From an uncultured Actinomycetota bacterium (GTDB taxonomy: Bacteria > Actinomycetota > UBA4738 > HRBIN12), in assembly GCA_963737525.1 (NCBI GenBank), contig CAVTTD010000017.1, positions 515 to 64,514 on the forward strand: a stretch of DNA of 64,000 bases, in the 5' to 3' direction. The translations under genes and the position numbers were made by a program. Each line of letters starts with the position of its first letter. Positions within the stretch are counted from its first letter, which is position 1. A model generated the notes under the pieces. The model worked only from the letters and a program-made list of their open reading frames with translations, was not told where the DNA came from and did not search any database. This document shows positions 1 to 64,000 of this stretch, in pieces.

Positions 1-592
1 TGTCGGGCGCCTCGCCCTCGATCATGAGGATGTCGATCCCGCCCTGCTCGTTCTTCGAGCCGGCCACGACGATGTCGAAGGTGGCGTCATCGAGCTCCTG
101 GAACGTGGGGTTCACGGCCCACTCTCCGCCGATGAGGCCGAGACGGACCGCGCCGACCGGGCCGTCGAACGGCAAGCCGGCGATCCCGACCGCGAGCGAC
201 GCGGCGTTCATCGCGGGGATGTCGTATGCGTTGGCCATGTCGACCGACAGGACCGTGATGACGACCTGGACCTCGTCCCGGTAGCCCTCGCGGAACGAGG
301 GCCGCAGGGGGCGGTCGATCAGCCGTGCGGTGAGGATCGCGGTTTCGGAGGGGCGTCCTTCGCGACGGAAGAAGCTGCCGGGGATCTTGCCCCGCGCGTA
401 CATGCGCTCCTCGACGTCGATCGTGAGCGGGAAGAAGTCGATCCCCTCACGTGGCGCGGAGCTGACGCAGGTTGCGAGCACCATCGTGTCGCCGTAGCGA
501 GCGACGGCGGCGCCGTCTGCGAGCTTCGCGAACGTGCCGGACTCGAGGAGCAGATCCTTGGTGCCGATCTGCCGAGACATGCTGGTGGCCAT
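1..592 (-). CDS. pnp: polynucleotide phosphorylase (PNPase), N-terminal part; gene runs off the window start
   Basis: Minus-strand ATG at 592 preceded by AGGAGG. Translation [43 protein letters not shown]... matches the PNPase N-terminal RNase-PH-like domain. Canonical position downstream of rpsO. Confidence 0.85.
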
Positions 593-830
593 AGGCCGTG
601 TACCTCCTGTTGTGGGCGGCGCCCTCGTGGCGCCGCGGCTGCGGGAGGCGGCGGGGCCGGTTGTCAGTGGTGGGCCTCCGGTTCGTGGTGCTGGCGCTGC
701 GCGGGATCCTGGGCGCGCGCTGTCCGGGGGTCCGCGACTGAGAACCGACCGTGATGGGGCTCCTCCGCCTCCGATGGTCGGTCAGTGGGTCGTTCGCATC
801 ACTCCTCTTCGGGGCTCCTGACGCTTCCGG

Positions 831-1100
831 TCAACGACGCAGCCCGAGCTTCGCGATGAGTGCCCGGTAGCGCTCGATGTCCTCACGCTTGATGTACTCC
901 AGGAGCCTCCGCCGCCGTCCCACCATCTTGAGCAGACCCCGCCGGGACGCATGGTCCTGCTTGTGGGTCTTCAGGTGCTCGGTGAGCTCAGCGATCCGTT
1001 GGGTCAGCACCGCGACCTGCACGTCGGCAGATCCCGTGTCGCCGCTGGAGAGGGCGTGCTCCTGGATGATCTCGTGCTTGGCTTCTTTGGTCAGCGTCAT
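831..1100 (-). CDS. rpsO: 30S ribosomal protein S15
   Basis: 89-aa [60 protein letters not shown]... is a classic S15 sequence. Confidence 0.95.
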
Positions 1101-2489
1101 GGTTGCAGGTCAAGGCTACCAGCACCTTCTTCCCCGCGACCCCGCTCAACGCCTTCTCCGATCGCGGTCGCCGTCGCAGCTCGGACGGTATCGACGAGTC
1201 GGGCGCGGCGGGCGCGGAGGTCCTCCACGAGGCCGGACGCTGCGGCCAGCCGCCGGAGACCCAGCCGCGCCCGCCGCGCCCGGATCGCCCTCCCGACGCA
1301 CCAGAGGGCGGCCAGGCCGCAGGCCGGGCCGACGACCAAGGTGAGCAGCCAGGGATGAGAGGCGGTGTCGAAGACCGCCCATCTGAGGAGGGCCCAGTTC
1401 GCCGGGAACAGGACGATCGCCGTCAGGAACTTCGCCGTCGCGTGGGTCACCGGCGGCATGGCCCGCCGTCCGACCGCGTCGACCGCGATCACAGGGATCG
1501 CGTTCGCCAGGAGCCCCACCGCCGCCAACGGCGCCAGCGCGAGGGTCAGGAGCCATCCCAGCCGGCTCCGGCGCGCCGAGCGCCTCTTCGGCTCCCGGCG
1601 CGACGACGGCATCGGGGACCCCCGCGGCCGCGAGGCCTTCGCGGTAGGCGATCGCCGCCGAGCGAACGGCCTCCTCCTCGGCCGCGGGCGCTTCGGACAA
1701 GCGGTCGGCCAGCCGCTCCACCTCCCCCACCGGGGGTCGTCCCCGAGGGTCCCCGTGCTCCCATCGGAGCGCGACGTTGGCGGCCAGACGCAGAGCCGAT
1801 CGTTGCTCCGCGCTCCGGAAATCGACGGCCGCATCGGTCAGCCGCGCCTCGATCGTGCGCGTGAGCGCCGCGACCGCGGCGCGGTCGGTCTCGTCCGGAG
1901 GAACGGCGGGATTCGTCGCGAGGTCCGAATCGAGCTCGAGCGGATCGCCGACGCGAACGTACGCGCGAGAGCGCGCTCGCTGCTTGTCCTCGTAGATCAG
2001 ACCGACGGGCACGATCCGCAGGCCCATCGCGCCGCGCGAGTGCGCGCCGAGCGCGATGCGCGCGGCGCCCGTCCGGATCGGAAGCAGGTGGGCCTCGTCG
2101 CTCGCCTCGCCCTCCGGGAAGATGCCGATCGCGCCGCCGCCGCGCAGATGCGCGAAGGAGGCGTCGAACGCGTCTACGTTCCGCCGCGCTCCCGCTCCGT
2201 CTGGGGCGGCATCCCGCGCCCGCTGAACCGGGATCGCACCTGCGAACGCGAGCAGCGGGCGGAGCGGCACGATCCGGAACAGCGACGCCATCGCGAGGAA
2301 GCGCACGGGCCGCGGAACGGTCGCGACCAGCAGAGCGGGGTCGACGAAACCGCCGTGATGGTTGGCCACGAGCAGGACCGGCCCGGTTCGAGGGATGCGC
2401 TCGAGGCCCGTGACCTCCACGGCCCGGAACCAGCCGAACGTCGCGGCCTTCGCGATCAACCGCACGAGCCGGTCGGCGAATCCCCGCAT
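1097..2489 (-). CDS. PlsC-family lysophospholipid acyltransferase with C-terminal membrane domain; apparent frameshift between the two parts
   Basis: Frame from 2489 has the acyltransferase motifs [10 protein letters not shown] (HX4D) and IFPEGEAS. A second frame (about 1561 down to 1097) encodes a hydrophobic membrane segment [27 protein letters not shown]... Its stop overlaps the rpsO start as ATGA. Frames join somewhere in 1560-1650. Confidence 0.6.
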
Positions 2490-3198: not shown

Positions 3199-4140
3199 TC
3201 AGTCCTCGGCGAGGTCGACCGCCGCGCGCGTCCGCTCGACGTCCTGCCCGATCGCCGCCACGAGGTCGTCGACGGCGTCGAATCTGATCTCGTCGCGCAG
3301 GCGCTCCCAGAACTCGACCGTGAGCGTGTCGCCGCGGAGCTCGTCGTCGGGGAAGGCCAGGAGGAACGCCTCGACATGCAACGGCTCCGTCCCGAACGTC
3401 GGATTCGTCCCGACGTCGATCGCCGCCACATACCGATCGCCGTCCTCGAGCTGCGCGACGCCGGCGTAGATCCCCTGGCCCGGGAGCAGGAGCCGAGGCC
3501 AGGTGCGGAGGTTCGCGGTCGGGTAGCCGAGGTCCTTTCCGCGGCCCGCACCGGCTACGACCTCCCCGTCGACGGCGAACCGACGGCCGAGCCCGGTCCG
3601 CGGCCATAAGAGGTCGCCCGCGCCGAGCGCTGCCCGGATCGACGACGAGGAGACGACCCGGTCGTCGATCGCGAACAGGCCGACGTCGTCCGCGGTCATG
3701 CCGAGCGGCTCACCGACGTCACGCAGGGTCGCCACGGTGCCGGCGGCGCGATGTCCGAACCGGAAGTCGGCCCCCACTCGGGCATGCACGGCATGCAGTC
3801 CCCCCACGAGCACGTCGCGGACGAAGTCCTCGGCCGAGACCTCGGAGAACCGCTGCGTGAACTCGAGCACGACCAAGACGTCGATCCCACAGGTCGCGAT
3901 CAGCTCCGCCTTGCGCTCCACGGTGGTCAGCAGGCGCGGTTCCTCGCCCGGTGTGAGGATCTCTCGCGGATGTCGATCGAAGGTCACGGCCACGCTCCGC
4001 GCGTCCCGCTCCTTCGCTGCTTCGACGGTCCTCCGGATGACCTCCTGGTGACCCAGATGGACCCCGTCGAAGAAGCCGATCGTCACGGCCGACGGGCCGT
4101 CGGGCAGCGGGAGAGCGTCGAGGCCCCGGACGACGTCCAT
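3199..4140 (-). CDS. ribF: bifunctional riboflavin kinase / FMN adenylyltransferase
   Basis: 313 aa with N-terminal FAD-synthetase motif GFFDGVHLGHQ and a C-terminal riboflavin-kinase domain (GRGKDLGYPTANL...). Confidence 0.93.
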   Translation of the reverse strand: MDVVRGLDALPLPDGPSAVTIGFFDGVHLGHQEVIRRTVEAAKERDARSVAVTFDRHPREILTPGEEPRLLTTVERKAELIATCGIDVLVVLEFTQRFSEVSAEDFVRDVLVGGLHAVHARVGADFRFGHRAAGTVATLRDVGEPLGMTADDVGLFAIDDRVVSSSSIRAALGAGDLLWPRTGLGRRFAVDGEVVAGAGRGKDLGYPTANLRTWPRLLLPGQGIYAGVAQLEDGDRYVAAIDVGTNPTFGTEPLHVEAFLLAFPDDELRGDTLTVEFWERLRDEIRFDAVDDLVAAIGQDVERTRAAVDLAED

Positions 4141-4180
4141 AGGCGTTGGAGGGTACCGGTCGGGCCAAGTCAGCGAAGCG

Positions 4181-5029
4181 TCAGAGGGGAGCGAGGATGA
4201 CCTGCGGCCGGGCCCGAGGCCCGTCGTCTTCGTAGACGCCGATCAGGCGACCGTCCGGTGCGAACACGCCGTACGGGCCGGTCAGGCCGGCGGGGCCGAG
4301 CGGCCTCCCGTGGGAGGCCGCGACGGCCTCGTCGGCATCGAGGTCGAGTCGGGGGAGGTGGCCGACCGCGGCATCCAGTGGTAGGGGCTCCGTGGCACCG
4401 TCCGGCGAGACGGCGTCATCGACCGCGTAGGGCCCGATCGCGGTGCGGCGGAGCGCGACGAGGTGGGCGCCGCACCCGAGTGCGGTGCCCACGTCGGCGG
4501 CGAGGACGCGCACGTAGGTCCCGCCCGAACACGTGACGCGGAACGTCGCGTCCGGTGCGTCGTAGGACACGAGATCGAACGCGTCGACGCGGACCGGGCG
4601 AGGCTCCGCCTCGAGCCGCTCCCCCTCCCGGGCGGCCTCGTAGAGCTTGCGACCACCGACCTTGACCGCGCTGTACGCGGGCGGACGCTGGAGCGAATCC
4701 CCCACGAGCGTGTGCATCACGTCGGTCAGCTGTGCTGCCGCGACGTCGACCGACGTCTCGGAGACGACGTCGCCATCGGCGTCGAGGGTGGTCGTCTCGA
4801 TCCCCAGCCGCATCGTCCCGTCGTAGGTCTTGGGCAGCGCCCCCAGGAAACGGAGCAGGCGGGTCGCTCGACCGACGCCGATCAGCAGCAGCCCCGTGGC
4901 CATCGGGTCGAGCGTCCCCGCATGACCGACCTTCCTCGTGCCGAGGCCCCGTCGCACGACGTCCACGACGTCGTGCGACGTCACTCCATGAGGCTTGTCG
5001 ACGAGGAGCAAGCCCTCTATCTGAGTCAT
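4181..5029 (-). CDS. truB: tRNA pseudouridine(55) synthase
   Basis: 282 aa; GLLLVDKPHGVTSHDVV...HAGTLDPMATGLL is the TruB catalytic-Asp motif. Confidence 0.93.
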   Translation of the reverse strand: MTQIEGLLLVDKPHGVTSHDVVDVVRRGLGTRKVGHAGTLDPMATGLLLIGVGRATRLLRFLGALPKTYDGTMRLGIETTTLDADGDVVSETSVDVAAAQLTDVMHTLVGDSLQRPPAYSAVKVGGRKLYEAAREGERLEAEPRPVRVDAFDLVSYDAPDATFRVTCSGGTYVRVLAADVGTALGCGAHLVALRRTAIGPYAVDDAVSPDGATEPLPLDAAVGHLPRLDLDADEAVAASHGRPLGPAGLTGPYGVFAPDGRLIGVYEDDGPRARPQVILAPL

Positions 5030-5055
5030 GGAGTCATCGCGCAGTCAGGGCGCCG

Positions 5056-6030: not shown

Positions 6031-6380
6031 CCGATCCCTCCGCGATGGAGGCGAGCGATGAGCTCCTCGATGTGTTCGTACTGCGCGATCGTCTGGTCCA
6101 ACTGGAACTCGATCTCCGGCAAGGTCCGCAGGCGCACCTGTCGCCCGAGCTCCCTGCGGAGATGGGGGGTGGCCGAGCGCAATCCCGCACCCGTCGCCCG
6201 TTGCTGTTTCTCGTCCCCGAGCACCGTGTAGGAGACCCAGGCGCGCCGGAGGTCGGCGGTCACCTGCACGCCCGTGACCGTGACGAAGCCGATCCGCGGG
6301 TCCTTCAGCCGTTGGATCTCCTCGGCGAGGACCTCACGGAACTCCTCCGCCACGCGAGCTCTCCGAGCACCTTGAGGCAC
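6027..6380 (-). CDS. rbfA: ribosome-binding factor A
   Basis: 117 aa; RIGFVTVTGVQVTADLRRAWVSYTVLG is a typical RbfA sequence. Its stop overlaps the nrnA start as ATGA. Confidence 0.9.
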   Translation of the reverse strand: MPQGARRARVAEEFREVLAEEIQRLKDPRIGFVTVTGVQVTADLRRAWVSYTVLGDEKQQRATGAGLRSATPHLRRELGRQVRLRTLPEIEFQLDQTIAQYEHIEELIARLHRGGIG

Positions 6381-6398
6381 GTCATCCCTCCGCGTCGA

Positions 6399-6692
6399 TC
6401 AGTCGTCCGGCGAGTGCAGGGTCAGGTCGCTGTCGATGATCTCGACCTCTGCCCATCGCTCGACGAATCGCTCCACCGAGTGCATCACCTTCTTGAGGTG
6501 ATACCCCTCGGTCGCGACCGCGGCGACCCCGAGCTCCGCTCGCTGCCACTTGTCCAGATAGCCGGTCTCCGCGACGGCGACCTCGAACGTCGACCGGATA
6601 CCGCTCGAGAGCGCCTTCACCACGTGACGCTTCTCCTTCAGCGAGCCGCAAGCCGGGATCCGGAGATCGAGCCGAAGCGCGGCCATCAGCAT
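6399..6692 (-). CDS. DUF503 (YlxP-like) protein
   Basis: About 97 aa from an internal ATG: MLMAALRLDLRIPACGSLKEKRHVVKALSSGIRSTFEVAVAETGY... This is the standard infB-DUF503-rbfA arrangement. The start abuts the infB stop. Confidence 0.7.
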   Translation of the reverse strand: MLMAALRLDLRIPACGSLKEKRHVVKALSSGIRSTFEVAVAETGYLDKWQRAELGVAAVATEGYHLKKVMHSVERFVERWAEVEIIDSDLTLHSPDD

Positions 6693-9156: not shown

Positions 9157-9162
9157 GACCCA

Positions 9163-10868: not shown

Positions 10869-10904
10869 GTTCCCCTCCTCTCGCCCTCGGGCCCGATGTC
10901 ACCC

Positions 10905-10935
10905 CTCGAAAAAGAAAGTGGGCGGCGAGCCCACT
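10905..10935 (-). terminator. Rho-independent terminator downstream of proS
   Basis: Minus strand reads AAGTGGGC-GCCGC-GCCCACTT (8-bp stem) followed by TTCTTTTTC, placed about 70 nt after the proS stop. Confidence 0.55.
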
Positions 10936-11008
10936 TCCGGCCGTGCAGATCGTCGTCGACCAGCCAGTATAGACAGCGCTCCCGGAACCGAGGTGGACGA
11001 GCGGCCCG

Positions 11009-21349: not shown

Positions 21350-22476
21350 CTAGATGGTCGGGAGTGGCTGCGTGATGTCGAGGAAGACCGTCGCGATCGC
21401 GAAGATCGAGAGGAACACGATCACCGCCGCGGAGATGGGGACGAGCTTCCGGTAGTCGGCCTGCCGACCGGTGAGCTTCTCCCAAGCCAGGAGCGCCAGG
21501 TGACCTCCGTCGAGCGGCGGCAAGGGAACAAGGTTCACGACGCCGATGAACACGGTCACATACGCGGCGAAGCCGAGGAACAGAGCCCAGTCGCCCCGAT
21601 CACCCGCAACGCCGATCTGGCGGCTCACCCCGACGAGGCTCGTCGGGTCGTCGGCGCGACGTGGCTCGTCGCTGAACAGGACGGTGAACGTTCGACCCAC
21701 GCCTTGGGTGAAGATCTTCGGGATCGCCGCCACGCTGTTCCAGGTGGCCTTCCCGACCCATCGGCCCGACGCGACCGCCGCCTCCGGGAGCGAAAGGGGC
21801 TCCGGGCCCAAGCGTGAACCCGATCCTCCCCTTCGTCGCGCCGTCCTCCGTGACGAGCTTCGGCACGATCCGCAACGTGATGATCCGTCCGTCGCGTTCC
21901 ACCACGTAGCGAGGGGTTCGTCCGGGTGCTCGCTTCGCGAAGCGGGTCACGTACCGCCCGAGCGTCTCCGGAGTCGGACCGGACGATCTCGCCGACGCGC
22001 ACGACGACATCGCCGACCCGGAGTCCGGCTACCTTCGCCGGCGACACGTCGCCGCTGAGCGTCCCCGAGACATCACCGACGACCACCTTGTTGGTATCGA
22101 GGTTCCCGTACGTGGCGAAGAGCACGAAGTACAGGACGGCACCCATGAGGAAGTGCGATCCGGGACCCGCGAGGATCACCAGCGCTCGCTGCCAGATCGG
22201 CTTGGACCCGTACGCGCGCGGAAGATCTTCGGATGGAACCGTCTCGTAGGGATTCATCCCGGCGATCTTCACGTAGCCGCCGGCCGGGATCGCCTTGACG
22301 CCGTACTCGATCTCCCCGCGCTTCCTCGACCAGAGCCTCGGTCCGAACCCGACGAAATACTCCGTCACTTTGAAGGCGTAACGACGAGCCACCAGCAGGT
22401 GGCCGAGTTCGTGGAGGGGTATGACGACGAGGAGGATCAGCGCGAGGAAGCCGGCGATCGCGTAGACGCTCCCCAC
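21350..22476 (-). CDS. rseP: RseP-type site-2 protease (M50, with PDZ domain); two apparent frameshifts
   Basis: Three frames in order. HELGH N-terminus: MGSVYAIAGFLALILLVVIPLHELGHLLVARRY... PDZ middle: YVVERDGRIITLRIVPKLVTEDGATKGRIGF. C-terminus with NLVPLPPLDGGH. Frame joins at about 21969-21990 and 21800-21815 (GGGCCC context). Confidence 0.8.
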
Positions 22477-23633
22477 CTAGCGGGCCTCGATGATCTCGGC
22501 GGTGCGTCGGCGAGCCCATGCATCTGCCCGCTCGATGTGCACGACCGAGACCACCGAGGGTGGTTCGTGTTCATCGACGATCGTCTGGACGATCTCCACG
22601 ATGCGTGGGAGCGGGATCTTCCCCTCGAGGAACGCCATCACGGCCACCTCGTTCGCAGCGTTCATCACGGCGGGGAACGTGAGCCCGAGTCCCCCGACGC
22701 GGTAGGCGAGGTCCACCGCGGGGAAGGCCTCGTGGTCGACGGGCTCGAACGTGAGCTTCGTCTCCGTGAGCGGCAGCGAGGCCACGCCGGTCGGGAGTCG
22801 CTCCGGCCACCCCAGGGCGAGCTGGATCGGCAAGCGCATGTCCGCCGTCGCCATCTCCGCGCGCATCGAGCCGTCCTTGAACTCCGCGATCGCGTGCACC
22901 ACCCCTTGGGGTGGATCAGCACGTGGATCTGCGAGTACTCGAGACCGAAGAGGTAGTGCGCCTCGATCACCTCGAGACCCTTGTTCATCAACGTCGCCGA
23001 GTCGATCGTGATCTTCGGTCCCATCGACCACACCGGGTGCTGCAGCGCCTCCTTCATCGAGGCCTTCGCGAGCTCCGTCGCGGTCCAGCCCCGGAAGGGG
23101 CCACCGGAGCCCGTGATGACGACGCGCTTGAGATCTTCCCGGCGCTCGCCGCGGAGCGCCATGGCGAGCGCCGCGTGCTCGGAGTCGACGGGCCGCAAGC
23201 GTTCGGGCTCGCCCTTGATGAGGTCCATGACGAGCTCTCCGCCCACGACGAGCGATTCCTTGTTGGCGAGCGCGACGGTCTTGCCGTTCTGCAACGCAGC
23301 GAGCGTCGGCGCCAAGCCGGACGACCCCACCAGGGCGTTCAGGACGATGTCGGCCTCGGTGTCTGCGGCGAGTCGCTCGGCGGCATCGGGCCCGATGAGG
23401 AGCTCGACGCCGCGCAGCGAACTGAGGACCGCCCGCACCTCCTCGGCCGCGTCCTCATCAGCGATCGCGACGAACGGCGGCAGGAACTCGCGGATCTGGC
23501 CGATCAACAGTTCCTGATTGGTTCCGGCGACGGAGAGTCCGACGACCTTGAATCGCTCGGGATTGCGACGGACGACATCCAGCGCCTGGGTCCCGACCGA
23601 CCCGGTCGAACCGAGGATGGTGATGCTCCGCAT
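22477..23633 (-). CDS. dxr: 1-deoxy-D-xylulose 5-phosphate reductoisomerase; one apparent frameshift
   Basis: N-terminal frame MRSITILGSTGSVGTQALDVV...SQIHVLIHP. C-terminal frame QGVVHAIAEFKDGSMRAEMATADMRLPIQLALGWPERL... Shift at a G4 run near 22908. Confidence 0.88.
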
Positions 23634-23687: not shown

Positions 23688-25263
23688 CTAGAACGCGATG
23701 AGGCGAAGCAGGAGAAGAGCCGCGGGCGCCACGAACAAGAGCGAATCGATCCTGTCGAGAACACCCCCGTGGCCGGGCAGGACGCTCCCCATGTCCTTCA
23801 CGCCGACGTCTCGCTTGATCAACGATTCGGCCAGATCGCCGAAGGTGGCCGCCAGCGAGACGACGATGCCGAGCAACACGGCGTTCAGCCGCCCGTCCAC
23901 GAAGATGCCCGGACCCGCGTCGACGAACGCGGTGACGAAGGCGGACGAAAGGATGATCGTCCCGAGCGAGGCCACGATGAGGCCTTCGATCGACTTCTTC
24001 GGGCTCGTGGCCGGGGCGAGCGGCCGCTGGATGAACGATCCCCCCCAGACGGAGCCGGTCAGGAACGCCAACGTGTCGAACGCGAACGTGAGACCGATCA
24101 CGGCGACCACGACGGAGGTCTCGAACGTGGTGAGGATGATCAGCAGCGAGCCCGCGAGCCCGGGGATCCAGAGCAACCCGAGCAACGTGAGTCCGATGTT
24201 CCCGGCGGTGTCCTTCCGGTGGGCCGCCGGAACCGTCATGTACCAGAGGAAGGTCGCCAGCACGCCGAGCGTCAGCATCGACAGGAGGCCGGCCTCGCCG
24301 TGGTAGTACGCGCCGGCGAGCATCAACGCGCCACTCACGAGTCCGACCGCCGTCGCGGGTTGGCGATGATGCTTCACCATCACCCCGATACAACTCACCC
24401 TGGGCCACGAGCGCGACGATGGAAGCGACGAGCGCGAAGACACCGTCGCCGATCAACAGGGCGACCAGCGCGACCCCCGCCAGCACGACGCCGGTCAGGA
24501 ACGCGGCGGGAACGTCGCGCTCGGTTCCCCGCCGGTCGAGGTCGGCTCCGACCTCGACGGCCGCCGGCTCCTGCCAGCTCGGACCGCCGAGTCCTTCGGC
24601 GCCGACGACGATCGTGCGGGCCGGTTCCTCCTCGGCCATCGCGGCGAAGACGTCCTCGTCCGCGTCGCCCGGTGGGTACGGCTCCGCGCCGAGCTCGTCC
24701 ATCAGGTCCGCGGCGTTCTCCTCGTCGATCTGGACGACGCGTGCAGCCGGCGCCCCGGCCCCTTCATCGCCAGCCGGTTCGGCGAAATGGGCCGCGGCTT
24801 CCTCCAACTCCTCGGCGGACGGCCGCTCATCCTCGTCCTCTTCCGCAGGCCACTCATCGGTCGCGGCCGGCCGCGCGAAGAGGTCTCCCTGGTCGTCGTC
24901 CGGCTGCTCCATCTCGGCGGCACGGACGACGGGCTCCTCGTCGGCATGGGCGTCGTCGCTGTCTTCGGCCGAGGCTCCGAGCGCCTGGTCGACGGGCTCG
25001 AGCGAGGCCGTGTCGTACCAGTCGGTCTCGTCTTCCTCGTCGTCGTCCTCGAAAGCGTCCGCGCCTCCGGGCGCTTCCGCGCCGGCTGGGGGGACCGAGA
25101 CCACCGCTTCGGGCTCGCTCCGCACGGACACGTGCTCCTCGCCCGGCGGTCCGCCCGCGGGCGCTGCGTCCTCCGACTCGTCCCACTCGACGTCCTTGAT
25201 CGGAGCGAAGAACTTGTCGAGATCCTCGAACAGATCGTCGCCCTCGTGCTCGTCGTCGGGCAC
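23688..25263 (-). CDS. cdsA: phosphatidate cytidylyltransferase with ~230-aa acidic N-terminal extension; one apparent frameshift
   Basis: GTG at 25263 overlaps the frr stop. D/E-rich low-complexity region, then the first TM AFLTGVVLAGVALVALLIGDGVFALV...AQGELYR. Frame switch near a C4 run at about 24381-24386. Remainder includes the signature GDLAESLIKRDVGVKDMGSVLPGHGGVLDRIDSLLF. Confidence 0.75.
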
Positions 25264-29242: not shown

Positions 29243-30735
29243 CCCGACTCCTCGAGCGAGGGAGGGAGGGCCGGGCCGAGACGTCGCTGGAGCGGTCGGG
29301 CGAGGAGGAGCGCCACGAGACCCGTGAGCACGCCGCCGAGGAGGAACCCGATGAGCAGCTCGCCGATGTCGATCGTGGTCGGCGACGGCTCGTCGATCAA
29401 CGGAGCGGCCGGGTCCGCCCGGAACGCCACGAGCGCGGCATCGTCGAAGCCCATCACCCCGACGAGGAGGTCGCCCGCATCCGACAGGCCACGAAGGAAG
29501 GTCCGCCCCCCATCGACCCGCGAGACGACGTGCCCGCTCCGACGATCGACCGCGTACAGCGTGCCGGAGTCGGTTGGGACGAGCACCTGATCCCGCGTGA
29601 GGAGCGGCGGCGAGAACTGGGACGGATCGTTCAACGCCTGATCCCAGAGGAGGGCGCCGGTCTCGGCGTCGAAGGCGTAGACGCGCCCTGTCACATCGAC
29701 CGCGAAGACCTGACCGTCCGCCGAGACCGGCGCCGGCGCTCCCACCCCCTGCAAGAGGAACGGCTGGCCGCGGGGGGCGATCGGGTTGATCACCTCCGTG
29801 CGCCAGAGGAAGTGACCATCGGCGGCGTCGAACGCGATCACGCCCCCGAGGGCATCGAGCGTGAGCATGCGCGCGTCCGCCACGACCGGGGCGCTGACGA
29901 AGTTCGACGCATCTTCGGCGCTGGCACGCCACAGCTCGTCTCCGCTCTTGTCATCGAGCGCGACGATCTCCGAAGGCTTTTCCTGACCTCCCAGCGTGGT
30001 CGCGAGCACTCGGCCGGCGTCCAGGGTGACGGCGCCCGAGATCGGCGTCCCGAGCTCCTTCGTCCACCGCACGTCACCCGAGGCGAGATCGATGACGGTG
30101 ACGCGGCCGCCGACGTCTCCGATGTAGGCGCTGGTCTCATCAACGGTGACCGGGGTCTGGACGATGTCCTCGAGCTGGACCGGCGAAGGCCACGCCGGCT
30201 CGCCGGTCTCGAGGTCCACCGCGTTGACGTGGGAGTCGAAACCCCCGCCCGCGTCGTTCTGCCCCGCCGGGGACGGCGAGGGCGTGACGGATCCGCTCCC
30301 CGCAGGCCCGGTGTCCCCGAAACCCTCCGTGAACACGACGATCGAGCCGTCTGGCGCTTGCCCGATCGCGGGCTGCGAGGATGGTCCGAAGTCGCGTTCG
30401 GCGCTGAACACCGGTGATCCGTCTCGACCGTCGAATCCCAGGACGGCGGTCGGTGCGACCACGACGATCGTGCCGTCCTCCGCGACGACCGGGGACGACA
30501 GCCCACCGGTGGTGTCCGTTCCCTCGAGCGTGATGTCGTCGTTCGTCCACGCGACCGCCAACGGGGCCTGCGGGCCGTCGGAGAGGCCGTCGTGGGCGCC
30601 CGCGCCCTGGAATTGGGCCCAGTCGGCCAGCGCGGCGATCGGGGCGCCCGATGACGATCGCGACCGTGCAGGAGGCGACCGCCAGCGAGCGATGTGACGC
30701 GCGGGAGAGGTGGAAGAGGCGCAAGGCCGCGTCAT
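29239..30735 (-). CDS. PQQ-like beta-propeller repeat protein with C-terminal TM anchor; possible N-terminal frameshift
   Basis: Repeated motifs such as VYAFDAETGALLWD, GTLYAVDRRSGHVV, DVRWTKELG. C-terminal IGELLIGFLLGGVLTGLVALLLARP is a TM anchor. An alternative TTG start about 30724 in a neighbouring frame would add a signal peptide (MRLFHLSRASHRSLAVASCTVAIVIG), joined near 30640-30650. Confidence 0.7.
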   Translation of the reverse strand: MTRPCASSTSPARHIARWRSPPARSRSSSGAPIAALADWAQFQGAGAHDGLSDGPQAPLAVAWTNDDITLEGTDTTGGLSSPVVAEDGTIVVVAPTAVLGFDGRDGSPVFSAERDFGPSSQPAIGQAPDGSIVVFTEGFGDTGPAGSGSVTPSPSPAGQNDAGGGFDSHVNAVDLETGEPAWPSPVQLEDIVQTPVTVDETSAYIGDVGGRVTVIDLASGDVRWTKELGTPISGAVTLDAGRVLATTLGGQEKPSEIVALDDKSGDELWRASAEDASNFVSAPVVADARMLTLDALGGVIAFDAADGHFLWRTEVINPIAPRGQPFLLQGVGAPAPVSADGQVFAVDVTGRVYAFDAETGALLWDQALNDPSQFSPPLLTRDQVLVPTDSGTLYAVDRRSGHVVSRVDGGRTFLRGLSDAGDLLVGVMGFDDAALVAFRADPAAPLIDEPSPTTIDIGELLIGFLLGGVLTGLVALLLARPLQRRLGPALPPSLEESG

Positions 30736-42069: not shown

Positions 42070-43578
42070 ATGGCGATCACCGCCGAGAGGTTGAGCCGGT
42101 CGAGCGGCGGGCGAAGGATCGTCTCGATGGACGCTGGGCAACCACCTCTTCGGGCCACCTCCCTTCTCGGGCTGGGCGATCGCCTTCGGGCTGATGGCGG
42201 ATGTGCTGACGGACGGTCCTCCCGGGGTCGGCTTCCTCCTCACGACCACGTGGCGGCGCTCGGAGTGGCCCTCGTCGCACGCCCGAAAAGCCAAGCGATC
42301 GCGTTCCTGGTCGCCGGGGTCGCCCTGGTCTCGTTCACCGTCGTTCGCGCGAGCCCCGTGCTCGCGGGTCTCGACCTCCTCAGTCGGGATCGGCCTGTTC
42401 GCCCTCGCGGGCGCATTCGCCCGCGAGGGAAACGTCGTGCGGACGGGCGTGCGCGCCTACGTCGCCCGCGCCTTCGGATGGACGGCACGATCCCGGCTGC
42501 CGGAGCGTTCCTGCTTCGCCCACTCGGGAGGCTGGTCCCCGGTCGGCGTCCAACTGGTCCTCCCACGCGCGCTGCTGATCGCGCTCCCCGTCGGCATCGC
42601 CTTCGCCGTCCTGTTCGCATCGGCGGACGCGGTCTTCGCGAAGCTCCTGCGGACCCCGTTCGAACAGCTTCCGCTCGGCGAGATCCCGAGGCACATCGTG
42701 GTCGTGGCTGGCGGCGCCGCGGGGTTCTCGACGCTCGCTGTCCGATCCTCGGTCCCGATCCGGCTCGGCCGATCCGCGCAGCCCATCGAAGGAGGCGGAC
42801 TCCGTCCGGCCGACTGGATCTCTCTGCTCGCGACCGTCGACATCGTGTTCGCGTTGTTCGTCGGGGTGCAGCTGTTCACGTTCTTCGGCGGGCGACGGTA
42901 TGTCTCGGCGGTCACCGGCCTGACGTTCGCCGAGTACGCCCGCTCGGGGTTCTGGCAGATGCTCGCCGCGGCGACGCTCACGGGACTCGGTGATCACCGC
43001 CTCCTGGATCGGCGGACGCCCGGCGTCGAGCGGTCGAACGGACATCGTTCAAGATCCTCGCCGGCGTGCAGATCGCTCTGGCGCTCGTCGTCCTGGCGAG
43101 CGCCTTCCAACGCCTCGTCCTCTACGAGACCGAGTTCGGCTACACGTGGCCACGGCTGATCCCGCACGCGGCGATCCTGCTCACCGCGGCGTTGCTCGGG
43201 TGCGGCCTCGTCGCCATCCTCACGGGACGCACGGTGTGGCTCCCCACGGCTGCGCTCTGCCTCGGGCTCCTCACGGTGGTCGGACTCAACGTCCTCGACC
43301 CGGAAGCCTTCATCGCGGAGCGCAACATCGCCCGCGTCGCGCGTGGGTACGAACTGGACACGCGGGAGCTGGCTTCCCTTTCGGCGGACGCGGCCCCGGC
43401 CATCGCGACCGCGCTTCCCGAGCTGGATCCGCCGATCAGGCAGCAGGTGGCGCGGGACCTCTCGTGCCTTCGCGCCGAGCTCCGGAAGGGCGTGTCTCGC
43501 TTCGGATGGGCCTCGTTCAACGTGGCGCGCGACACCGCGCTCGAACGACTGGATGGGCTGCGACTTCCGCCGTGCTGA
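42070..43578 (+). CDS. DUF4173-family polytopic membrane protein; at least two apparent frameshifts, 5' end uncertain
   Basis: Family-typical segments [56 protein letters not shown] and [43 protein letters not shown], read across three frames. Joins near 42380-42400 and 43034-43045. Confidence 0.45.
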
Positions 43579-52178: not shown

Positions 52179-55100
52179 CTAGCCCACGGGCTCGGTCGCC
52201 GACACCTCGATCGGTTGCCGATCCGGCTGCGCGGTCGCTTCCGAGGGCTCGGGCGCGAGGTCGTCCGGGTGCTCGAGACGTTGGCAGAGGATCTTCGTGG
52301 TGCCGTCCTTGTTGAGCGAGACGCCGTACATCATCGAGCCGATCTCCATCGTGCGCTTCTGATGCGTCACGATCATGACCTGCGCATCGCGCGCGAAGCC
52401 CGCGACCAGTCGGAGGAACCGGTGGAGGTTCAGGTCGTCGAGTGCCGGCTCCACCTCGTCCATCAGGTAGAAGGGAGACGGGCGTGCGGTGAAGATCGCG
52501 AACAGGAACGCGAGGGCCGCCAGTGAGCGCTCACCGCCCGAGAGCAACGAGATGCGCTTGACCCTCTTGCGGCCCGGGCTCGCCTCGATCTCGATCCCCG
52601 ACTCCAGGGGATTCGCCGGATCGGTCAACACCAGCCGACCGTCGCCCCCGGGGAAGAGCTCCTTCACCAGTCGTTCGAACTGGGTGGCGACGTCTCGGAA
52701 CGCAGCGTCGAAGGTCTCCTGGATCTCCGCGTCCACCTGCGCGACGAGTTCCAAGAGATCCCGGCGTGCCTTCCGGACGTCGTCCAGCTCCCGCTGCATG
52801 AAATCGTGCCGCTCCTGGACCGCCTCGAACTCCCCGGTCGCGAGCAGGTTGACCCGGCCGAGGAGGCCGAGCCGTCGCTGGACGAGTTCGCTCGCCTTCT
52901 CGATCGAGGGGACCGAGTCGTCGTCGGTCAGCATGGCGAGCGCCGCCTCCGGCTCGAGGCCGTGTCCCTCGCGCAGCAGACGTTCGGCGTCGCGGATCCG
53001 GCGCTCGATGTCGCCCCGGAGACGATCGTCCTCCTCGTAGGTCTCGCGGAGCCGGTCGAGCTCGGTCGACGCGTCACGCCATGCCTTGTTGATCTCGGCT
53101 TCGCGGGATGCCGCCGAGCGCTCCGCCGCTGCGGCGGCGTCCCGCTCGTCCGCGGCTTCGGTGGCTCGCTCGTCGGCGCGTGCGGCTGCCTGCTCGGCCG
53201 CCGACCGCGCCGCCTCCGCTTCCTCCAGCGCCAACCGCAGTTGCTGCGGATCGTGCGCCGACGCCTCGTCCCGCTCGGTCTGCGATCTCCCCCGGCGCGC
53301 GTCCAAGGACGCGCGATCGCGCCGGAGGGTCTCCACCACCACGCGAGCCTGGATCGGAGGTTGTGGGAGCGGCGGCAGCTCGGGGATGTCGTCCGGACCG
53401 GTGGGGCCCAGCTCGGTCGAGTCGATCGCGTGCGGTGGTCTGCGCCTCCCGCACGGCCGCCAGCCGTTCCGCGATCAGCTCCCGCTCCTTGCCGGAGGAG
53501 GCAAGATCTCGCTCGAGGGTGACGAGCCGCTCGGCGGCGATCGTGATGTCGGCGTCGGCGGCCTCGATCTGCTGGTTCAAGAACTCGATCTCTTCCGTCG
53601 TTTCCCCGAGACGCTGGCGTAGCGGCTTCAGCCGGCTGCGGGTCCCGGCGAGATCGTGGGCGAGGACCTGGAGCTCCGACCGGATCTCGCGAGCCCTCGT
53701 GTCGATCTCGCGGGGGGTGTGGATCACGGCGGGTCCGACGAGGGTGCCGTCCGGGGTGACGAAGGAGGCGCGCGGGTGCGCGGCCTGCTTCTCGGCGGCC
53801 TCTTCGATCGAGTCTGCGAGGTAGACGTCGCGCAGCACGGTGCTGACGATCCCGCGGGCGGCGGGGTCGGCGTCCACCTCCGAGAGCAACGGCCGTTCCC
53901 CGGAGAGTCCCTGCGGCACCGGCCCCCCCGCGGCGATCGCCAGGATCGCGCCATCGCCCTCCGGAGCGACCGCGAGCGCCTGCTCCCGATCCTCGTAGAC
54001 GACGGCGTCGGCCAGCGGTCCGAGCGCAGAGACGAGAGCCCGCTCGAGGCCTTCTCCCGCGCGGACGAGGTCCTTCAGGACACCCGCCGCGCGGCCGCGG
54101 TGCGTCTTCAAGAACCGCGACCCGGCCGTCTCCTCGATGTCACGGCGGCGCGCTTCCAACAGCTCGAGGCGCGCCTGCTGCCGCCGCTCGATGTCTTCGA
54201 GCTCCTCGACCTTCTCGGCGGCACGGCGTCGCTCGTCTTCGAGCTGTGTCCGACGTTCGGCGAGCGGAGAGGACTGGCCGTCGAGGCCCTCGATGTCCGC
54301 CTCGATCTCCTCCTGCTCGGTCCGAAGGGCGCCGCTCCGTTCGTCGATCTCGCGAAGCTCCGCTTCCAGCCGATCACGCTCCCGTTCGCCGGAGGAGAGC
54401 GCGCGCTCCAGCGCTTCGATCTCCACCCGGCGCCCTATAGCCTCCTCGCCTGCCCGCCGCCGGAGCTCGTCCACCTCGCGCCGGTGCTGGTCGGCGTCCC
54501 GGAACGCGGCCTCGGCTTCGTCGAGCTCACGCTCCCGCGCGGCGAGCTCCCCGAGGGTGCGCTCCAGATCCGCCTCCACGCGGGCGAGCTCGGCCTCGAT
54601 GGCATCGAGCCGAGCCGCTCGGCCGGCCTGGGAGGCGAGTTCCTCCCGCGATGCGCCTTCGCGCTCGAGGGCGATCCGGAACGCTTGCTGCGCCTCGGAC
54701 CGATCCGCTTGTGCCGAACGGAAGCGGAGCTCGCTCTCCGCGAGTCGCCTCGAGGCCGCGGCCCGCTCATCCGCCCCATCGAGCACCTCGGCATCGAGGG
54801 CGTCCAATCGGGCACGAGCTGCTTCTCGCTCGGCCAGACCATGGTCCCAGCCGCCGCTCCGCCGCTCGCGTTCCGCCAGCAGCGCCCGCAGTCGAGCCGC
54901 CGCCAGCTTCCGTGACAGCTCCTCCGCCTGTTCCGTCAGCGTCTCGTGTTTCTTGGCCATCTCGGCCTGTTGACGCAACGGTTTCAGCTGTCGCCTGAGC
55001 TCTCCCATCACGTCCTGGAGCCGGAGGAGGTCTTGGTCCAAGCCGGCCAGCTTGCGCTCGGCTCGCTCCTTTCGACGACGATGCTTCGCGATGCCGGCCG

Positions 55101-59152: not shown

Positions 59153-60253
59153 CTATCGCTTCGGTCGATCCTTCGGACCGTCCTCGGTGTGCTGGTTCCA
59201 TTCGTCCAGGAGCGCCTCGAGCCCGTCCCACCGGGGGTCGATCTCGGACTCGGTGCACGTGCACTGGCCGAGGTTGAGATCGCCGCCGCATCGGGCACAG
59301 AGCCCACGACAGTCTGGCCGGCACACCGGAGCGAACGGCAGCTCGACACCGATCGCGTCGCGCATCATCTGATCCGGATCGAGGAATCCTTCGGGATCCA
59401 ACGGATATTCATCCGAATCCTCGTGCGGGAACGGGACGAACAGCTCGCGCAGCTCGACCGAGAACCCCTGCTCGAACTCCTTCAAGCAACGAGCGCACCG
59501 GAGTGACAGGGCACCCTGGAGCCGGCCGCTCGCGAGGATGCCCTCCGCGAGCGATTCGAGGACCAACTCTCCGGAGATCGGCGTGTCGTCGCTCAAGCCC
59601 GCGAGCTCGGTCGCAAGATCGTCGATCGTGCCCGAGACCTGCTCCGCCTTCCAGGTTCCGTATCGCCCGACGAGATCGCGAACGTCGATGACGCCGATCA
59701 CACGCTCCTCCTCATCGAACAGCTCGTTCTCCTCCGGCGGCCGCGCGAACTCCGCTTCGGCCGCGTTCGCCGGTCCTCGAAGCCGCTCGCGACCCACCTC
59801 CACCTGGTCGAGCGTCCGGTTGAGGGCCTTCGTGGATCCCTGCGACGCCTCGAGGATCTTGCGGATCGAGATCTCGAATTGAGCGAGCTTGGCATCGACG
59901 TAGTCCTCTGCCTCGGCGCGCATCGCGCGGGCGCGCTCCTCCCCCTCCGAGATCACGCGATCGGATTCGGTCGTGGCTCTGGCGACGATCTCCTCCTTCC
60001 GGGCCATCCGGAGCTGCTCCTCGTGCGCTTGCTCGACGATGCGCTCTCCTTCCTCACGCGCCTTCGCGAGAAGCTCGTCTCGATCCCGAACGATCCACCG
60101 GGCTTGCTTGATCTCCTCGGGCATCGCGTCCTTCATCTCCGCGATCATCTCGAGGATCTCCTCGCGATTGACGAGCACCGACGAGGAGAGCGGCATCGAT
60201 TTGGCCTCCCTGATCAGCTCTTCCAGCTGCTCGAGCCGTGTCGAGAAGTCCAT
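59153..60253 (-). CDS. YceD/DUF177-family protein with ~190-aa N-terminal coiled-coil extension (single frame, no intervening stop)
   Basis: ATG at 60253 overlaps the coaD stop (TGATG). N-terminal part MDFSTRLEQLEELIREAKSMPLSSSVLVNREEILEMIAEMKD... is charged and helical. C-terminal part has the DUF177 Cys motifs LRCARCLKEF ... PVCRPDCRGLCARCGGDLNLGQCTC. Sits upstream of rpmF as usual. Confidence 0.7.
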   Translation of the reverse strand: MDFSTRLEQLEELIREAKSMPLSSSVLVNREEILEMIAEMKDAMPEEIKQARWIVRDRDELLAKAREEGERIVEQAHEEQLRMARKEEIVARATTESDRVISEGEERARAMRAEAEDYVDAKLAQFEISIRKILEASQGSTKALNRTLDQVEVGRERLRGPANAAEAEFARPPEENELFDEEERVIGVIDVRDLVGRYGTWKAEQVSGTIDDLATELAGLSDDTPISGELVLESLAEGILASGRLQGALSLRCARCLKEFEQGFSVELRELFVPFPHEDSDEYPLDPEGFLDPDQMMRDAIGVELPFAPVCRPDCRGLCARCGGDLNLGQCTCTESEIDPRWDGLEALLDEWNQHTEDGPKDRPKR

Positions 60254-61355: not shown

Positions 61356-63611
61356 TCAGGAGCTGAAGAGCCACGCGATGGAGTCTTCGAACCGATCATG
61401 CAGCTCTTCGAGGAGCCCAGGATGATGCTCGAGGGTCGGATCCTCCTCGACCAGAGCGAACGCCCGCGCCCGAGCGCGCTTCACGAGGTCGAGATCCTCG
61501 GACAGGCGCGCCAGCTTCAGGTCGGGCATCCCCGACTGCTTCGTGTCGAACAGGGTGCCCTCCCCTCGGAGACGGAGATCCTCGTCGGCCAGCTCGAACC
61601 CATCGGTGGTGCGGGTCATGGCGTCGATGCGGGCTCGGGCCTCGATGTTCGTGTCCTCGGACTCGTCGAACAACACGCAGAACGACACGTACGCGCCGCG
61701 GCCGATACGCCCGCGCAGCTGATGGAGCTGGGCGAGGCCGAAGCGTTCCGCGTTCTCGATCAACATCACCGTCGCGTTCGGAACGTCGACGCCGACCTCG
61801 ATCACGGTGGTCGAGATGAGGACATCGGCCCGCCCCGATCGGAAATCCTCCATCACGCGATCCTTGTCCTTCGGTCGCATGCGCCCGTGGAGCAGCTCGA
61901 CCCGCAGATCGGGGAAGATCTCCGTCGCGAGCCGCTCGGCTTCGGCCTCCGCCGCGCGGACCTGCGTGCGGTTGCCTTCATCGATCGCGGCGCAGACCAC
62001 GAAGGCCTGCCGTCCGGCGCGGATCTCGCGCCGGACGAGGTCGTAGGCGTCGGCGCGCTCCGTGTCGGAGCGCGCCGCCGCGGTCCCGATCGGCTGCCTG
62101 CCCTTCGGCATCTCGTCGAGCACCACGACGTCGAGGTCCCCGTAATACGTGAGCGCGAGCGTCCGCGGGATCGGGGTCGCGGTCATGATCAACACGTCGA
62201 CCTCGCCGTCCCCCTTGCCCTTGAGGGCCATCCGTTGATGCAGGCCGAACCGATGCTGCTCGTCCACGACCGCGAGCGACAGGTCGTCGAAGGTGACCCC
62301 TTCCTGCACGAGCGCGTGCGTGCCGATGACGAGATCCACGCCGCCGTCCGCGATCCCCGCGAGGATGCGCGCGCGGTCCCTCCCGGTGACGGCCGAGGTC
62401 AGGAGCGCGTAGGTCACCCCGTCCGCGGTCGCGTGGTCTGCCGTCTCTTCCATCGACTCCAGCAAGGAACCTTGCCCATCGGCTCCCGCGGGCGCGGAGG
62501 CCGCGCGATCCAGCTGGTTCACCGCGCCGACACCTTCCAGGAGGGTCCGCACCGAGCGTGCGTGCTGGCCCGCCAGGACCTCGGTGGGCGCCATGATCGC
62601 GGCCTGATGGCCCGACTGGATCGCGACGAGGCAGGCGTGGACCGCGACCAGGGTCTTGCCCGATCCCACGTCGCCCTGGAGCAGCACGTTCATCGGCCGC
62701 GCGGCGGCCATCGCCTCCCCGACCTCCTCGATCGCGCGGAGCTGCGCCTTCGTGGGCTCGAACGGTGTCGTGGCCGTCAGGCGGTCGGTCAGCACGCCGT
62801 CGACGCGGTGGGCCAAGCCCTTCCGCTCGGACTCCAGCCGATGCTTCCGGAAGGCGACACCCAACTCGAGCGTGAACAGCTCGTCGAACTTCAACCGCTC
62901 GACGGCTCGAGCCAGCTGCTCTGCGTCCTCGGGGAAGTGCACCCGCCGGAGGGCCGCGTCGAGGTCCTCCAGCCCCTCGGCCTCGATCAGCTCGGTCGGC
63001 ATGGGGTCGACGATCGGCGGTAGCCGTTCGAGCGCGGCGAAGACCAGCTCACGGATGGTCCGGGTCGTGACGCCCTCGGAGGCCCGATGGACGGGCGTGA
63101 TCCGACCGGTGTGGACCAGGTCGCGCTCCTCGCCACCGAGGATCTCCGCCTCCTGGTTCGCGAGCTGGAGATGCCCTCGGTAGCGGGTCACGGTGCCCGA
63201 GACGGCGATCTCCAGCCCTTCCTTGTAGATCCCGGCGGCCCAGGGCTGGTTGAAGAACGTCATGTCGAGGAAGCCCGTGCCGTCGGTGATCGTGACGGTC
63301 ACCATCGTCTGACGTCGCCGGGTCAGGCGCTTGGCGGTCTTGTGGACACGAGCGATCACCGTGGCCTGTTGCCCGATCCGCAGGTCGCCGATCCGCTCCA
63401 CGGCGGATCGGTCGATGTAGCGGCGCGGGTAGTGACGGATGAGATCGCCCACGGTCCTGATCCCCATCCCGGCAAGGATCACGTGGGCTTCCTCGCCCTT
63501 GTCCCGGAGGCCGGTCCGGCGCGTGGCCAGCTTTCGGTCCACGAGGAGGACCGGGGTGTCGAGCGCGAGCTTCGAGGGAGAGGCGGACAATCTCGTGAAG
63601 GGTTCTACCAT
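61356..63611 (-). CDS. recG: ATP-dependent DNA helicase RecG
   Basis: ATG at 63611: MVEPFTRL...; wedge domain, helicase motifs LLQGDVGSGKT, VVDEQHRFG, MTATPIPRTL, ISTTVIEVGVDVPNATVM, QLRGRIGRG. Confidence 0.92.
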   Translation of the reverse strand: MVEPFTRLSASPSKLALDTPVLLVDRKLATRRTGLRDKGEEAHVILAGMGIRTVGDLIRHYPRRYIDRSAVERIGDLRIGQQATVIARVHKTAKRLTRRRQTMVTVTITDGTGFLDMTFFNQPWAAGIYKEGLEIAVSGTVTRYRGHLQLANQEAEILGGEERDLVHTGRITPVHRASEGVTTRTIRELVFAALERLPPIVDPMPTELIEAEGLEDLDAALRRVHFPEDAEQLARAVERLKFDELFTLELGVAFRKHRLESERKGLAHRVDGVLTDRLTATTPFEPTKAQLRAIEEVGEAMAAARPMNVLLQGDVGSGKTLVAVHACLVAIQSGHQAAIMAPTEVLAGQHARSVRTLLEGVGAVNQLDRAASAPAGADGQGSLLESMEETADHATADGVTYALLTSAVTGRDRARILAGIADGGVDLVIGTHALVQEGVTFDDLSLAVVDEQHRFGLHQRMALKGKGDGEVDVLIMTATPIPRTLALTYYGDLDVVVLDEMPKGRQPIGTAAARSDTERADAYDLVRREIRAGRQAFVVCAAIDEGNRTQVRAAEAEAERLATEIFPDLRVELLHGRMRPKDKDRVMEDFRSGRADVLISTTVIEVGVDVPNATVMLIENAERFGLAQLHQLRGRIGRGAYVSFCVLFDESEDTNIEARARIDAMTRTTDGFELADEDLRLRGEGTLFDTKQSGMPDLKLARLSEDLDLVKRARARAFALVEEDPTLEHHPGLLEELHDRFEDSIAWLFSS

Positions 63612-63617
63612 CCCGGT

Positions 63618-64000
63618 ATGACCCCCCGACGGCTGACGGCACTCCTCGCCGGGCTCGCCCTGCTGGCTTCCTGTTCCGGGGAGCCCGAGCCGAGCGCGTC
63701 CGCCGGGACGATCCCGGCCGCGGAACGCCACCGAGGCCGCCCTGTTGCCGACGTTCGCCGACACGCTGCCGGCGATGGACCCCGACACCTTCCTGCGGCT
63801 GCTGGGGCAGCTGAAGGGGACGCCCGTCGTCGTCAACTTCTGGGGGGAATGGTGCCCGCCCTGCACGCGAGGAGATGCCTCGTCTCGTCGCCGCCCACGA
63901 GGAGTTCGGAGATCGCGTGCAGTTCGTCGGTGTCGACGTCTTGGACTCGCGGACCCAGGCGAGATCGTTCATGAAGGAATTCGGGATGACGTTCCCGAGC
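63618..64000 (+). CDS. TlpA/ResA-like thiol-disulfide oxidoreductase lipoprotein, 5' part (runs off the window end); two apparent frameshifts
   Basis: Lipoprotein signal MTPRRLTALLAGLALLASCSG. Second frame FADTLPAMDPDTFLRLLGQLKGTPVVVNFWGEWCPPC (thioredoxin CxxC). Third frame REEMPRLVAAHEEFGDRVQFVGVDV. Joins at about 63722-63740 and 63863-63870. Confidence 0.65.

Follow-up and report, generated by a model that had tools for sequence, protein, structure and literature searches.

The 64,000-nucleotide stretch of DNA analysed here (the window) carries 29 frame-breaking indels in 16 genes, and these are very likely consensus errors, probably introduced when a noisy-read metagenome assembly collapsed related strains, rather than mutations of the organism. 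That they are artefacts of assembly or polishing in general, we have little doubt. The events were located by aligning the proteins of intact orthologues to the DNA of called genes with our own frameshift-aware protein-to-DNA dynamic programme. A six-frame ORF search by tblastn with the proteins of relatives was dropped as too noisy, because all frames cross-match at 86% DNA identity. The spectrum consists of 24 one-base insertions, four one-base deletions and one two-base deletion, so that insertions outnumber one-base deletions 24:4 (p=2e-4). The inserted bases roughly follow composition (G10, C5, T5, A4; n=24), and the events are clustered along the contig (variance/mean 3.2 in 4-kb bins, p=3e-5). 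They concentrate at 21.8-43.1 kb, whereas 43-53 kb is clean, as is 1.6-21.8 kb apart from the rbfA deletion described below. The length spectrum of indels in the coding DNA of the window is unselected: among window-specific coding indels, 22 are of +1, four of -1 and two of -2, with 28 of lengths not divisible by three vs four of lengths that are, and frame-breaking lengths have not been filtered out. Essential single-copy genes are affected, namely dxr, cdsA, lepB, smc, rseP and xerC, and several genes carry more than one event, including LysE (four), DUF4153 (seven), redoxin (two) and rseP (four).

On the minus strand, a one-base insertion splits the acyltransferase gene (1576..1577), which is one ORF of 447-462 aa in relatives, and a two-nucleotide deletion (6041..6044, placed at 6042) alters about the last five codons of rbfA near its 3' end; the latter is found in none of eight relatives. 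In rseP (Peptidase_M50), bases are inserted at 21984..21985, 21934..21936 and 21812..21813, the last at the third position of a Thr codon where both G and C are written, and one base is deleted at 21908..21910. The dxr gene has lost the third base of a Gly codon (22902..22907), the sole event compatible with a run change from G5 to G4, whereas cdsA, a gene of 524 aa in relatives, has gained a base in a Tyr codon TAT/TAC (24387..24388), where T and C are both written. Further insertions on this strand lie at about codon 25 of a PQQ/BamB-like beta-propeller gene (30649..30650), in xerC (32757..32758), in dprA (33781..33785) and in a TolB-like (PD40) gene (37636..37641). LysE contains four (39335..39338, 39204..39205, 39104..39105 and, in a run of 3, 39042..39046). 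The lepB insertion (40956..40957) falls in an Ala codon GCC/GCG with both alleles written, and that of smc (53417..53418) at a G/A polymorphic column, again with both bases present. Finally, an insertion at 59701..59702, where a 184-aa gene overlaps yceD, removes the stop of the former and fuses it in frame with yceD. On the plus strand, one base is inserted in a PLP-dependent decarboxylase gene (36449..36453). The DUF4153 gene carries insertions at 42169..42171 (a run of 3), 42382..42385, 42550..42553 (with the closest relatives L171/L172 as reference), 42989..42990 and 43037..43038, and one-base deletions at 42250..42251 (a polymorphic column) and 42485..42488. The redoxin (tlpA-like) gene has insertions at 63720 and 63865, the second immediately 3' of the CPPC motif.

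A preliminary description of this DNA had listed about 19 single-base frameshifts and ascribed them to assembly indel errors. The frameshifts themselves stand and their number does not, as there are 29 events, one of them a two-nucleotide deletion. All 14 genes that it named do span two or more frames, and their Pfam domains continue from one frame to the next at consecutive profile positions: DNA_processg_A runs over positions 2-126 and then 125-210 in dprA, Peptidase_S26 over 2-67 and then 66-168 in lepB, and SMC_N over 1-141 and then 135-219 in smc. Most of its join coordinates fall within a few bases of those obtained by frameshift-aware alignment against intact orthologues. Its two joins in rseP, at 21985 and 21812, are confirmed, with a further pair at 21935 and 21910 bringing the count to four. 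LysE has four joins (39336, 39205, 39105 and 39044) where three had been given, and the gene called DUF4173 with two joins is DUF4153 (PF13687) with seven. The join in the decarboxylase gene had been set at a GGGG run at 36464; it lies instead at 36449-53, and the true reading is ...YGADSWGVLTSGG. Likewise, the cdsA motif given as ELYR-VMVKHH reads ELYG-VMVKHH, with the additional base located within the Tyr codon, outside the G run. The rbfA deletion at 6042 and the insertion at 59701 were absent from the earlier list.

The indels are specific to the window. The same alignment was applied to 11 further contigs from close relatives, mostly short-read-style: their copies of these genes, about 135 kb of sequence, yielded no frameshift, vs 18 events in 26.7 kb of the window. 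Gene calls on the 11 contigs give every affected gene at full length, and gene content and synteny are the same as in the relatives. In relatives, Smc has 1136 aa, LysE 213 and the DUF4153 protein about 500. Once corrected, Dxr is 385 aa long, as in all 120 listed homologues, to which it is 90-97% identical. The contig L178 is 98.7% identical to the window over 55.5-64 kb, and all three of the window's insertions in that region (the one at the yceD junction and the two in redoxin) are missing from it. L178 also carries a foldback inverted duplication at 81% identity.

The insertions are associated with sites that vary among relatives. The extra base equals an allele found in relatives at the adjacent column in 13 of the 24 insertions, vs 16% under random insertion (p=2.6e-5), and a polymorphic column flanks 19 of the 24, vs a null of 48% (p=0.002), where polymorphic columns are those defined from lineages 85-91% identical and not from strains co-assembled in the sample. 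The four one-base deletions all lie at third-codon or polymorphic columns. The same signature was recovered from two 'contig_N' ENA contigs of this lineage, at an event rate of 1-2.8 per kb: L175 has 35 insertions and four deletions in coding DNA, with a merged-allele p=0.006, and L178 has eight insertions and no deletions, with p=4e-7. The other 11 of the 24 insertions repeat no known alternative allele, and some of these may be plain random errors.

Could the strain itself have inactivated these genes, or at least the dispensable ones (LysE, DUF4153 and redoxin)? It is true that the genes with several events include accessory or membrane proteins (four in LysE, seven in DUF4153, two in redoxin), and that the affected genes have a slightly higher dN/dS (0.05-0.27, median 0.16) than the intact ones (median 0.11, p=0.016), a pairwise estimate over dS of about 0.4 that is blind to very recent inactivation and serves as supporting evidence only. 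Decaying genomes, such as those of Mycobacterium leprae and recent endosymbionts, accumulate pseudogenes, and they resemble the window in having many frameshifted genes per unit length. However, relaxed selection and many additional stops, which would argue against an artefact, were looked for: no internal stop codon was found in the corrected affected genes, no large deletion or insertion element was seen in them as a lesion of decay, and dN/dS does not exceed 0.27. After correction, the proteins share 75-96% identity with intact orthologues, and the out-of-frame segments are each conserved in their own frame; LysE, with its four insertions, still matches its orthologue at 94% identity. Unlike what is seen in decaying genomes, single-copy essential genes are hit too, and lesions are missing from the 98.7%-identical contig as well as from the 11 contigs of relatives. 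A mutational origin also offers no explanation for the merged-allele pattern, and we regard it as extremely improbable. The attribution of the indels to assembly and not to decay, already made in the preliminary description, is thus upheld by the intact relatives, by L178, by the lack of nonsense codons, by the low dN/dS and by the excess of coding indels not divisible by three. Recoding, that is, programmed ribosomal frameshifting or transcriptional slippage restoring the frames in vivo, is raised only by the number of essential genes affected, with nothing specific in its favour. No common slippery motif is present, +1, -1 and -2 changes are mixed with up to seven in one gene, none of the sites recurs in a relative, and every relative has these proteins encoded in one frame, so that this reading has next to no chance of being correct.

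If the indels are sequence errors, one candidate source is a platform that miscounts G/C runs, gaining or losing one base inside them. This is the commonest residual error class in Nanopore assemblies (PMC8812927, PMC9262707), and a few events would be compatible with it: dxr 22903-07, where a change from G5 to G4 is possible, and LysE 39042-46 and DUF4153 42169-71 in runs of 3. The preliminary description had placed many events at G/C homopolymers and taken miscalled run length as their cause, neither of which survives the run-length analysis. Run length at the 24 insertions is 1 in 17, 2 in five and 3 in two, with none in runs of at least 4, vs 58%, 30%, 8% and 3.6% for runs of 1, 2, 3 and at least 4 among all window bases; in other words, 17 of the inserted bases differ from both neighbours and extend no run. 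Runs of at least 3 hold two of the 24 insertions vs a background of 12% (p=0.8). Runs in the window reach 7 at most, and those of at least 5 number only 118. Because the sequence is 69% GC, the nearness of the events to G/C runs is at chance level. The 24:4 excess of insertions is, moreover, the reverse of typical run under-calling. The events are insertion-biased, non-homopolymeric and tied to sites polymorphic among relatives; run-length miscalling is largely refuted as their cause and is very unlikely to account for them. A closer competitor is that random single-base insertions of noisy reads survived a low-coverage consensus with no strain mixture involved. The insertion bias, the non-homopolymer context and the roughly compositional bases would all fit, as would the lack of a merged allele in 11 of the 24 insertions and the density of such events in L175 and L178. 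Against it stand the excess at polymorphic columns and of alternative alleles, in the window and in both of these contigs, and the strong clustering along the contig; we consider this reading possible but rather unlikely.

Together, the insertion bias, the non-homopolymer context and the link to polymorphic sites indicate consensus errors from collapsed strain variation, which is probably the main source of the events, although the read-level mechanism is deduced from the assembled sequence. Soil metagenomes hold many relatives at 90-99% identity. Under strain collapse, reads of closely related strains of a soil Actinomycetota population would have been merged into one sequence, and read alignments could render a substitution between strains as a deletion together with an insertion. 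During consensus building or polishing, both alleles would then sometimes be written in tandem, giving a spurious +1, and sometimes neither, giving a spurious -1. Clustering of the events is expected if the error rate tracks local strain mixture or coverage. The behaviour of the contig suggests a noisy-read, long-read-style metagenome assembly, the platform being judged from the errors themselves.

Errors of this kind have precedents. Watson and Warr (2019) reportedly drew attention to the interrupted-ORF problem caused by indel errors of long-read assemblies. As in the window, a conserved gene hit by such a one-base indel is broken into neighbouring ORFs that lie in different frames; the indels are visible against intact orthologues and missing from other assemblies of close relatives. 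That indels fragment genes is a known property of long-read assemblies (Kastor tool paper, PMC12007338), but the residual errors of Nanopore data as usually described differ from the spectrum found here, which is insertion-biased and non-homopolymeric. In Nanopore, 454 and Ion Torrent data, miscounted homopolymers (PMC9262707, PMC8812927) likewise shift the frame of otherwise intact genes by one base, but with an association to run length that the window lacks. A nearer parallel is the allele-specific assembly of Trypanosoma brucei, in which collapsed nearby variants led to misaligned reads and to ORFs truncated by INDEL errors (PMC8445201). There too, apparent frameshifts mark sites of allelic difference at which misaligned reads were merged into the consensus, and the window's insertions repeat the alternative allele; the mixture in T. 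brucei is one of two homologous chromosomes of a diploid, whereas in the window it would be one of co-occurring soil strains.

One feature of the window is not predicted by strain collapse. The tetranucleotide GATC occurs within 10 nt of 18 of the 29 events, vs eight expected, an association noticed post hoc as the best of 123 four-mers (Bonferroni p of about 0.015), and it was not reproduced when checked in the insertions of L178. GATC is 4.4-fold over-represented in this genome. It would surprise us greatly if a minority of the events were genuine strain-specific inactivations (for example in LysE, DUF4153 or redoxin), or if the lineage tolerated frequent frameshifts by recoding; were either the case, the GATC enrichment could mark a sequence-directed mutational or editing process and not a base-calling effect.

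Several other candidates were discarded. An apparent frameshift of pnp at 694 was not counted, as it falls 5' of the start of pnp, in the conserved rpsO-pnp leader. The difference at ribF 4101 is one of start region or junction and not a frameshift, that of nusA at 9135-9165 is natural variation in C-terminal length (418 aa in L183), and that of pabB at 16030 is an error in the relative L088 itself. Neither the response regulator nor the N-terminal fragment of dxr gave a match in an exact look-up.

From a practical perspective, at least 16 genes would be split or wrongly extended by gene calling on this contig, among them dxr, cdsA, smc, lepB, xerC and dprA, and one false fusion would result, that of the 184-aa gene with yceD. 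Pseudogene counts would thereby be inflated, and apparent completeness and coding density lowered. As the errors are non-homopolymer insertions at strain-variable sites, homopolymer-aware polishing would not repair the contig, and strain-aware polishing or polishing with high-accuracy reads is needed. The same signature in L175 and L178 suggests a problem at the level of the pipeline, relevant to database users. As for the organism, its real dxr, cdsA, smc, lepB, xerC, rseP and other affected genes are almost certainly intact, and the broken genes are almost certainly a problem of sequence quality, not biology.

The 64-kb window has a GC content of 66-72% and an actinobacterial core-region gene order, which runs by Pfam through pnp, rpsO, ribF, truB, rbfA, infB, nusA, rimP, proS, ispG, rseP, dxr, cdsA, frr, pyrH and tsf, followed by rpsB, xerC, dprA, lepB, rplS, trmD, rimM, rpsP, ffh, ftsY, smc, rnc, rpmF, coaD, rsmD and recG. 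Four conserved and intact genes match no Pfam family (12760-14562, 16675-17664 and 28319-29242 on the minus strand, 56043-56642 on the plus strand; 600, 330, 308 and 200 aa), with orthologues in relatives at 78-94% identity.

A six-frame codon-usage Viterbi pass over this sequence revealed many same-strand frame switches with no stop between, and consecutive profile positions of Pfam domains continue across them (DNA_processg_A 2-126 then 125-210, Peptidase_S26 2-67 then 66-168, SMC_N 1-141 then 135-219, Peptidase_M50 2-106 then 130-215, LysE 2-85 then 88-128, DUF4153 90-231 then 245-372). Close relatives at 85-91% DNA identity supplied syntenic contigs for comparison, mostly short-read-style assemblies with MEGAHIT-type k141 names or from JGI metagenomes. 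A frameshift-aware dynamic programme that aligned the proteins called on these contigs to the window, an approach the preliminary description had suggested, located 24 one-base insertions, four one-base deletions and one 2-nt deletion, a total of 29 frame-breaking events spread over 16 genes. Every gene named in that description is indeed frameshifted, mostly within a few bases of the join it gave, but its count of about 19 was too low: rseP and LysE hold four events each rather than two and three, the gene it called DUF4173 is DUF4153 with seven rather than two, and the decarboxylase join maps to 36449-53 instead of the GGGG at 36464. In addition, rbfA has lost 2 nt at its 3′ end (6042), and an extra base at 59701 abolishes the stop of a 184-aa hypothetical gene for which relatives show a GTGA/TTGA overlap with yceD (59156-60253, minus strand); the two genes are thereby fused in frame, and a gene caller would report a false fusion protein.

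The same procedure and reference proteins, applied to 11 other close-relative contigs, found not one event across the roughly 135 kb of coding DNA aligned, versus 18 in 26.7 kb of the window. A separate DNA-level scan, counting net length differences from the window on which at least 75% of relatives agree, found 22 coding differences of +1, four of -1, two of -2 and four in multiples of three. As true divergence among relatives includes zero frameshifts, this spectrum is one of unselected changes. Reference choice matters for frameshift calling, because some relatives are frameshifted themselves: L088 (MFD09212.bin.1.18) in its acyltransferase and pabB genes, equivalent to 1701 and 16030 of the window, while in L183 (CAJDUF010000012.1, 10760-12573) gene calling splits pnp into two ORFs (303 and 300 aa).

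Several lines of evidence separate sequence errors from gene decay. The affected genes include single-copy essential ones (dxr, cdsA, lepB, smc and rseP), and the corrected proteins are 75-96% identical to their orthologues, with zero internal stop codons. Soil metagenomes and MAGs labelled Actinomycetota contain hundreds of homologues of corrected Dxr at 90-97% identity, all of them 385-386 aa long. CdsA (23691-25263, minus strand) has 524 aa in the window and in all relatives; CTP_transf_1 covers its C-terminal part only, and its N-terminal ~290 residues are conserved (82% identity to the relative L001) and match no Pfam family. LysE retains 94% identity despite four insertions, each out-of-frame stretch being conserved in its own frame. 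The dN/dS of affected genes is 0.05-0.27 (median 0.16, against 0.11 for intact genes). An independent contig, L178 (contig_87572 of a different ENA assembly, ERZ25039464), shares 98.7% identity with the window at 55.5-64 kb; it has none of the three window insertions there and carries 12 private extra-base differences where the window's genes are intact. Taken together, these sequence comparisons effectively rule out both decay and recoding, and the events are almost certainly assembly errors, as the preliminary description had concluded.

The cause it proposed, indels at homopolymers, is wrong. For each insertion, the extra base was taken as the one whose removal best restores identity to relatives; in 17 of 24 cases it differs from the base on either side, five insertions fall in runs of 2 and two in runs of 3, and longer runs contain none. 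With 58%, 30%, 8% and 3.6% of random bases in these classes, the 24 window insertions show no homopolymer enrichment. There is a bias towards insertions over deletions, 24:4 (p=2e-4).

Inspection of the alignments often shows two bases in the window for one variable base in relatives: TA[T][C] for TAC in cdsA (24387), AC[G][C] for ACT in rseP (21812), GC[G][C] for GCC or GCG in lepB (40956), CTC[G][A]CC where relatives have G or A in smc (53418), and CG[T][G]TGA at the yceD junction (59701) for CGTTGA (L178) or CGGTGA (L179, another relative). The extra base equals an allele found at the adjacent column in 13/24 insertions; 3000 random insertions simulated in these alignments give an expectation of 16% (p=2.6e-5). 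A polymorphic flank accompanies 19/24 (48% expected, p=0.002), and the columns of all four one-base deletions are third-codon or variable ones. Such a pattern is expected if reads of closely related strains were collapsed into one consensus, a substitution between strains then being resolved as an insertion or deletion; such collapse is documented for diploid assemblies (PMC8445201). With some reserve, we therefore favour as source a noisy-read metagenome assembly whose consensus went wrong at strain-variable sites. Plain random insertion errors are the main alternative and seem to us rather unlikely.

Strain collapse at variable sites would also explain why the events cluster (variance/mean 3.2 in 4-kb bins, p=3e-5) and why affected genes have a slightly elevated dN/dS, as more variable genes offer more sites. 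A third of the window, 21.8 to 43.1 kb, holds 24/29 events, with frr, pyrH, tsf, rpsB, a sigma factor gene, comM, rnhB and rplS intact among the affected genes; 1.6-21.8 kb and 43-53 kb are nearly event-free. This regional clustering could reflect coverage, strain mixture or partial polishing. GATC occurs 816 times in the window, 4.4 times the 184 that base composition predicts, and 18/29 events lie within 10 nt of one, where 8 would be expected (p=1.2e-4); among 123 four-mers GATC ranks first, and the best six-mer is GATCGG/CCGATC. Proximity to GATC is not seen for L178's own insertions, and the association could be methylation-related base-calling trouble or chance. The 260-nt pnp leader in the rpsO-pnp spacer (572-839) is highly conserved in 10 relatives, and only the window departs from it, with CCC shortened to CC near 694 and three nucleotides missing near 716, both probably the same error class in non-coding DNA.

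The excess of merged alleles, in which the inserted base is the alternative allele beside the window's own, recurs in two ENA contigs of the same lineage with Flye-style 'contig_N' names, L178 (p=4e-7) and L175 (p=0.006; ERZ25039583 contig_1615, an 824-kb record compared over 1-20177). Gene calls are heavily fragmented in both, with recG of L175 in three pieces and smc in several. L175 has 39 coding frameshifts in 14 kb, and coding insertions to deletions stand at 35:4 there and 8:0 in L178, the insertions of both being non-homopolymeric; the error signature of L175 is that of the window, at a higher rate. L178 also contains an inverted duplicate of itself (4047-12511 and 12516-19123, 81% identity, 151 gaps); both copies match the window at 55.5-64 kb, one at 98.7% and the second in reverse at 81%. 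Foldbacks are typical of chimeric long reads, and this one is probably such an artefact. Long-read soil MAG projects have used Flye and one Medaka round, with quality reported as limited by microdiversity and low coverage (PMC12313526), and the window may come from such a project.

Polishing aimed at homopolymers will not mend this error class, and the case serves as a reminder of that. The events are not a biological feature, and the practical value of finding them is that of a quality flag.
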